64,000 nt of DNA. Origin: Escherichia coli (GTDB lineage: Bacteria; Pseudomonadota; Gammaproteobacteria; Enterobacterales; Enterobacteriaceae). The DNA is taken from assembly GCF_003334355.1 (NCBI RefSeq), contig NZ_QOWP01000014.1. One strand, given 5' to 3'. Below are positions 7,720 to 8,232 of this stretch, piece by piece. The position numbers were made by a program, and so were the translations under genes. The stretch's first letter is position 1; every line of letters begins with the position of its first letter. Below the pieces are notes generated by a model. The model searched no databases. It was not told the origin of the DNA and worked only from the letters and a program-made list of their open reading frames with translations.

Positions 7720-8232
7720 TTAGCTGAGGCGTTGAGGGCCAGCACGGATGCCTTGCGCCTGGCTTATCCAGACGGGCGTGCTGAATTTTGCTTGTGGGGT
7801 AAAATGCGCATAATCAATGCGATAACCCTTTTCAGACGGCGTGCCTTCCTGGGTCAGCAGCGCGCTGAGCGTATCCAGTAATGCAAGATGTTGCGCCTGA
7901 AGAGGCAAGGATTCTTCAGCAACGGGCAGCGTTTGCGGTGCCATTGCGAAGGAAAGATGACGGATTACCGTGCGAATGGCATGTTGATGCCAGTAATCAA
8001 CGGAATAGTTCGAATTCGGGCGGCGCGTGTTCGCTTCCAGCAAGGCCAATTGACCAAAGTTAACTTTGGCTGAAGGCTCGTGGTTGCGGGTTGTCGCTTT
8101 TGCGGGCGCGTTTGGTTCGGTGGCGTTGCTGAGCGCAGGCAAACCTAAACTCGCCGCAACCATCCCTAATAAGAGATGCGGCCAGAAGTAGCGTTTACCA
8201 AACTGTCGCCAGCGCGTCAGTATTCCACTCAC
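7720..8232 (-). CDS. secM: Secretion monitor SecM (translation-arrest leader regulating secA)
   Basis: 170 aa from GTG at 8232 (ORF track extends further upstream to an ATG); C-terminal arrest motif [17 protein letters not shown]; located 61 bp upstream of secA. Confidence 0.93.
7735..7785 (-). promoter_or_regulatory. SecM ribosome-arrest peptide coding segment (FxxxxWIxxxxGIRAGP)
   Basis: Codons 150-166 of secM encode [17 protein letters not shown], the established stalling sequence. Confidence 0.9.

Follow-up and report, generated by a model that had tools for sequence, protein, structure and literature searches.

An ordinary, intact secM gene upstream of secA in a 64-kb window of the Escherichia coli chromosome

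SecM is among the best-characterised arrest peptides, and structures of its nascent chain on the ribosome are available in several PDB entries (8qoa, 9vvi/9xwo and 3jbv). The arrest motif is FxxxxWIxxxxGIRAGP, and the ribosome stalls while its P site holds peptidyl Gly165 and its A site Pro166; residues 163-RAG-165 together with Pro166-tRNA prevent peptide-bond formation, and an export pull on the nascent chain relieves the stall (PMC10951299). Residues 1-37 of SecM form the secretion signal sequence (PMC6993859). In peptides of the MifM, VemP and RAPP/RGPP type, a nascent chain holds its ribosome in arrest until it is pulled by the localisation machinery, and so controls a downstream localisation gene (PMC7897499, PMC10987492 and PMC12992588). 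Here we describe the secM locus in a 64-kb window, the whole stretch of E. coli DNA that was analysed, and compare it with these systems.

Identity of the gene and its arrest motif

The window is E. coli chromosome, collinear on the reverse strand with K-12 MG1655 from 115,936 down to 50,544 at 99.3% identity, and the local gene order is ftsA, ftsZ, lpxC, secM, secA, mutT. Translation of the minus strand gives a secM frame of 513 nt running from GTG at 8232-8230 to TAA at 7722-7720 (Table 1). It is followed on the same strand, after a spacer of 61 nt, by secA, the gene of the secretion motor, and the order lpxC-secM-secA is that of K-12 and of eight other genera. The product scored 231 bits, against a cut-off of 100, with the NCBIfam equivalog NF002799 'secA translation cis-regulator SecM' (profile positions 1-168 of 169), and matched Pfam PF06558 (SecM) at 6.1e-58 over model positions 1-146 of 147. 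RefSeq annotates the same 513-nt CDS, by length and position, as secM, with the product name 'secA translation cis-regulator SecM', both in K-12 (b0097) and in strain 203740, whose complete genome is the closest. These profiles, the RefSeq annotation and the lpxC and secA neighbours agree with the earlier note, which had called the gene secM. Six of the 513 nucleotides differ between K-12 and the window, giving two amino acid changes (A38T and T170S) and four synonymous ones.

Table 1. Positions of secM, secA and associated features in the window.
Feature	Coordinates	Strand	Basis or remark
secM CDS	7720..8232	(-)	GTG start, 170 codons, TAA stop; length and position as RefSeq secM of K-12 (b0097) and strain 203740
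Atypical SecM signal sequence, codons 1-37	8122..8232	(-)	Long basic N-region, hydrophobic core, cleavage motif; identical to K-12
Codon 38, ACC (Thr), not GCC (Ala): A38T	8119..8121	(-)	First residue past signal-peptide cleavage site
Arrest-stabilising segment, codons 57-98	7939..8064	(-)	Function from PMC6993859; residues intact, invariant in 19 orthologues
Arrest motif F150-P166, 17 residues	7735..7785	(-)	Translation; published motif (PMC10951299)
Stalled-ribosome position, Gly165 GGC (P site) and Pro166 CCT (A site)	7735..7740	(-)	By PMC10951299 and PDB chains ending at Gly165 (8qoa, 9vvi)
Predicted helix 5' arm, CUCAACGCCUC-A-GC, last secM codons	7723..7736	(-)	MFE and centroid fold; consensus of 10 sequences
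Predicted local hairpin CUCCGC-AAC-GCGGGG	7675..7689	(-)	Putative; fold of mRNA 3' of stalled ribosome
Predicted helix 3' arm, GCGGGGCG-U-UUGAG	7667..7680	(-)	Holds purine-rich secA Shine-Dalgarno region, 9-11 nt before secA ATG
secA (901 aa), regulated gene downstream of secM	4953..7658	(-)	ATG 7658-7656
Candidate extended -10-like element, TGnTAAGAT	8276..8284	(-)	Putative; conserved block in 9-genus alignment of lpxC-secM spacer
lpxC intrinsic terminator	8384..8436	(-)	Two-tier hairpin 8436-8393 and nine-U tract 8392-8384; fold z = -5.3

Read from 7785 to 7735 on the minus strand, the codons TTC AGC ACG CCC GTC TGG ATA AGC CAG GCG CAA GGC ATC CGT GCT GGC CCT encode the complete arrest motif, from F150 (TTC, 7785-7783) to P166 (CCT, 7737-7735), followed by QRLS and the stop codon. 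The earlier note had placed the full motif, with its Pro166 codon, at exactly these positions. In a six-frame scan of the window the pattern F....WI....GIRAGP occurred once, at secM. The stalled SecM chain in PDB 8qoa, which extends to Gly165, is identical to the window protein over residues 132-165, and the chains in 9vvi and 9xwo match it over residues 1-165 except for A38T. Arrest is known for the identical C-terminal sequence (PDB 8qoa, 9vvi and 3jbv; PMC10951299), and is predicted in this strain.

Conservation was assessed in an alignment of 19 SecM proteins from Escherichia, Citrobacter, Salmonella, Enterobacter, Raoultella, Yokenella, Phytobacter, Kosakonia and Intestinirhabdus, which share 71-96% identity. 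Ten residues of the motif (F150, W155, I156, S157, G161, I162, R163, A164, G165 and P166) were invariant in 19/19 orthologues and, S157 excepted, these are the positions of the published signature. Eight residues outside it, D79, Y80, W81, H84, R87, I90, R91 and F95, to which mutagenesis has assigned an arrest-stabilising role outside the exit tunnel (PMC6993859), are likewise all present in the window protein and invariant in the alignment. The earlier note had proposed an alignment to see which residues beyond the motif vary; variation was found mainly in residues 38-56 and 128-149. An N-terminal export signal is present, judged by identity with the characterised K-12 protein.

The 901-nt secM region was found in 5425 of 5426 complete E. 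coli genomes. A 136-nt segment that spans the motif, the spacer with its helix and the start of secA was also found in 5425/5426, at 99% identity or more in 5057 of them. Three of the 5425 secM matches fell on plasmid-labelled records and one complete genome had no match; mislabelling of replicons or a gap in an assembly probably explains these cases.

For the window itself, the analysis establishes the sequence of secM, its family, the gene order, and the conservation of motif, start codon and pairing potential. By sequence, the gene belongs to the SecM family: it scores above the profile cut-off, carries the arrest motif and an export signal, adjoins secA and encodes the predicted mRNA helix described below. 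We regard it as nearly certain that this is a normal, intact chromosomal E. coli secM, a secretion monitor controlling secA translation in cis, and no observation speaks against this reading.

Several observations concern the rest of the window. The sole structural difference from K-12 in its whole length lies at 56250-56366, where 117 nt replace about 1.5 kb (K-12 58,178-59,686) holding yabP and yabQ, between djlA and rluA. A REP-like or naRNA4 element lies inside this replacement at 56273-56351; it is one of four Rfam matches to naRNA4 (REP-type), the others being at 4311-4388 and 4428-4504 (yacG-mutT) and at 49262-49327 (araD-polB spacer). BLAST found staggered tandem copies in the araD-polB spacer at 49108-49373. 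Two further Rfam matches at gathering level, both on the minus strand, have names that look odd on a chromosome: PssrA ('plasmid-encoded Shigella sRNA A') at 10624-10713, over the end of ftsA and the start of ftsZ, and STnc40 at 4908-4977, which overlaps the stop codon of secA and takes up most of the spacer between secA and mutT.

Predicted pairing between secM and secA mRNA

When the RNA from 7790 to 7630 was folded, MFE and centroid structures alike (z = -2.5) contained a helix of 13 bp, in which the end of secM pairs with the Shine-Dalgarno region of secA. The 5' arm begins at the second base of the Pro166 codon. RNAalifold recovered the same secM-secA helix from 10 sequences, in which 93.8% of cells were paired, compared with 31-56% when the partners were slid by 1-3 columns. 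The covariation signal in these sequences was not significant, with one compensatory pair and with 90-99 of 500 shuffles reaching the observed values, which we attribute to other constraints on both arms, namely the invariant coding of PQRLS on one side and the secA Shine-Dalgarno sequence on the other. The secM-secA pairing potential is conserved, as a predicted structure for which covariation offers no independent proof.

Masking of the 5' arm, with the mRNA 3' of a stalled ribosome left to fold, gave a predicted local hairpin at 7689-7675 and left UUUGAGA, the Shine-Dalgarno sequence, unpaired in the centroid fold. This hairpin and the long-range helix are mutually exclusive, the 3' arm of the hairpin being shared with the helix. 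Among the 10 sequences, 93.3% of hairpin cells were paired compared with 40-65% after sliding; no compensatory change was found and covariation was not significant. The modelled folds suggest that helix and hairpin could form a two-state switch that leaves the secA Shine-Dalgarno sequence single-stranded. Neither an Rfam search of the whole window at the gathering threshold nor one of 7600-8500 at E <= 1 returned a family on the secM-secA or the lpxC-secM spacer.

These elements fit the following mechanism, for which the stalling, the P- and A-site assignment, release by pulling force and the unmasking of the ribosome-binding site come from published work or inference. Translation would begin at GTG 8232, and the signal sequence (residues 1-37) would take the nascent chain to the Sec machinery. 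Once peptidyl-tRNA(Gly165) fills the P site and Pro166-tRNA the A site, peptide-bond formation would be blocked by residues 150-166, which then lie in the exit tunnel; the ribosome would stall at 7740-7735 and occupy the mRNA just downstream, 7736-7723. A stalled ribosome would cover roughly the next 12-15 nt 3' of the Pro166 codon, and with them the whole 5' arm of the helix. This arm would otherwise pair with 7680-7667, the secA Shine-Dalgarno region, and the stall would expose the secA ribosome-binding site and allow secA to be translated. Export of nascent SecM would pull on the chain and free the stall, so that secA translation would rise when secretion is poor. Unmasking of the secA ribosome-binding site by the stall is the published mechanism.

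Upstream region, start codon and codon 38

Direct folding of the lpxC-secM spacer revealed an intrinsic terminator of lpxC, which is kept in 9 genera with two compensatory pairs. Its apical loop, ACUCUCUCC, of about 9-10 nt, is almost invariant across the 9 genera, CU-rich and anti-Shine-Dalgarno-like. The conservation of this loop exceeds what a terminator alone would need. A consensus terminator scan of 7600-8500 missed the element because the loop exceeds the 3-8 nt limit of the scan, and Rfam gave no family match for it. Closer to secM, the block TGnTAAGAT lies about 45 nt upstream of GTG 8232 and is a candidate secM-secA promoter, as its conservation and its likeness to an extended -10 element suggest. 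A consensus promoter scan of 7600-8500 did not report it; the single site it returned overlaps the secA start and scored at shuffle level. No usable report of a mapped transcription start for secM was found in the literature searched.

The start of secM reportedly underwent experimental revision by Sarker, Rudd and Oliver in 2000. The earlier note had taken GTG 8232 as the start and judged a 221-aa ORF (7720..8385), said to begin with an upstream ATG, as probably not used. That ORF opens instead with TTG at 8385-8383, and the window holds no in-frame ATG between the upstream stop and GTG 8232, the only in-frame start-type codons there being this TTG and a GTG at 8307, which lie 51 and 25 codons upstream, respectively. 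If the real product were the 221-aa form or the form from GTG 8307, SecM would carry an N-terminal extension and a buried signal sequence. Such a product would agree with the frame of 56 open codons above GTG 8232 in E. coli, with its TTG and GTG candidates, and with the versions of 215-225 aa given by some automatic gene callers (P0019-P0021, P0036, P0045), but comparison of the window and K-12 with the DNA of eight orthologous loci speaks against it. The codon aligned with 8232 is GTG in 10/10 sequences, whereas the stretch open over 56 codons is specific to Escherichia and shrinks to 0-21 codons in the eight other genera; in three of them, Raoultella, Yokenella and Phytobacter, the GTG comes immediately after a stop codon. 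Residues 2-27 of the 170-aa form are nearly invariant among the 19 orthologues, and the DNA upstream is poorly conserved except for regulatory-looking blocks. The match to the SecM family profile starts at residue 3 when counted from GTG 8232, which in the 221-aa form is residue 54. Further arguments against a longer product are that TTG 8385 overlaps the last bases of the U-tract in the conserved lpxC terminator, that both upstream start codons precede the conserved -10-like element, and that RefSeq starts the gene at GTG 8232. We consider a longer product extremely unlikely. The start at GTG 8232 is well supported by these sequence comparisons, in agreement with the earlier note; its view that the 221-aa ORF is not used is also borne out across genera, its ATG is not, and the ORF, a product of mechanical ORF listing, is an artefact that arises because the frame stays open in Escherichia alone.

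With the GTG form as the product, two other readings bear on whether the gene works normally. That the motif is a chance occurrence or a decayed remnant in a non-functional gene is virtually impossible in our assessment: an exact match over 17 residues cannot be chance, and against decay stand a full-length ORF only 6/513 nt away from K-12 secM, every functional residue intact, and a motif-plus-helix segment at least 99% identical in 5057 complete genomes. The A38T substitution, a rare allele and the one mildly unusual feature of this gene, raises the question of whether processing or arrest-release timing is altered, with secA regulation shifted in this strain. The 71-mer around codon 38 never found a 100% identical match, A38T being absent from all 5425 complete E. 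coli genomes with a match, and the signal sequence is known to influence the release of SecM arrest (PMC6993859); both would favour an effect. Yet the exact window protein is on record from 16 contigs, and Thr occurs naturally at column 38 of the 19-protein alignment in Yokenella, Phytobacter, Kosakonia and another enterobacterium, with His in Raoultella. Signal peptidase I also tolerates most residues at +1, proline excepted, which again argues against altered processing. Deletion of residues 38-56 caused no significant change in arrest duration (PMC6993859). Because of the 16 contigs, the Thr found elsewhere and the lack of a significant effect of the 38-56 deletion on arrest duration, a functional effect of A38T is unlikely, and we give a shift of secA regulation through altered processing or release timing only a slim chance. 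It is similarly very doubtful that A38T changes SecM processing or targeting kinetics and so resets the induction threshold of secA; were it to do so, the A38T protein would be a naturally occurring secretion monitor whose set-point is shifted.

At the second difference, codon 170, it is K-12 that has the unusual residue. Codon 170 (7723-7725, minus strand) encodes Ser in the window and in all 19 aligned orthologues, and Thr170 (ACC, not AGC) in K-12, so that Thr170 of K-12 is, from the alignment, the derived state. This change in K-12 also alters one base of the outer GC pair of the predicted helix.

Comparison with known systems

The intact secM described here is already known and ordinary, a textbook element of essentially every E. 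coli genome, and an intact chromosomal copy in this species teaches nothing new about so well studied an arrest peptide. Its significance is that of an annotation check: the secM-secA unit is normal, the GTG start is right and the 221-aa ORF is an artefact.

The closest described system is SecM of K-12 (b0097, NP_414639.2), with which the window shares the lpxC-secM-secA locus, the 170 codons, the GTG start and the spacer of 61 nt; the arrest motif, residues 1-37 and 39-169, the spacer and the 3' arm of the helix are identical. The two differ by A38T, T170S and the four synonymous changes, and the 5' arm of the helix by a single base, that of the last pair, which is C in K-12 and G in the window (codon 170). 

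SecM of other Enterobacteriaceae (Citrobacter, Salmonella, Enterobacter, Raoultella, Yokenella, Kosakonia, Phytobacter and Intestinirhabdus) shares with the window protein the GTG start, the invariant N-terminal region, an invariant 19-residue segment and the F/WI/GIRAGP residues, and in these genera, too, the final codons of secM are predicted to form a helix with the secA Shine-Dalgarno sequence. They differ in being 71-82% identical and 164-168 aa long, with residues 38-56 and 128-149 variable, and in the non-signature positions of the motif, where for example STPV is replaced by SVPA or SVSA.

The SecM_small type (NF038363 / PF10818) has the annotated role of secA translation cis-regulator in common with SecM and shows weak similarity over the N-terminal signal region; at 26 bits against a cut-off of 45, and a Pfam i-Evalue of 0.025, the window protein is not a member. 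MifM, VemP and the RAPP/RGPP-type peptides upstream of Sec or YidC genes follow the same logic, with unrelated sequences, hosts and regulated genes, and we claim no membership among them for the window gene.
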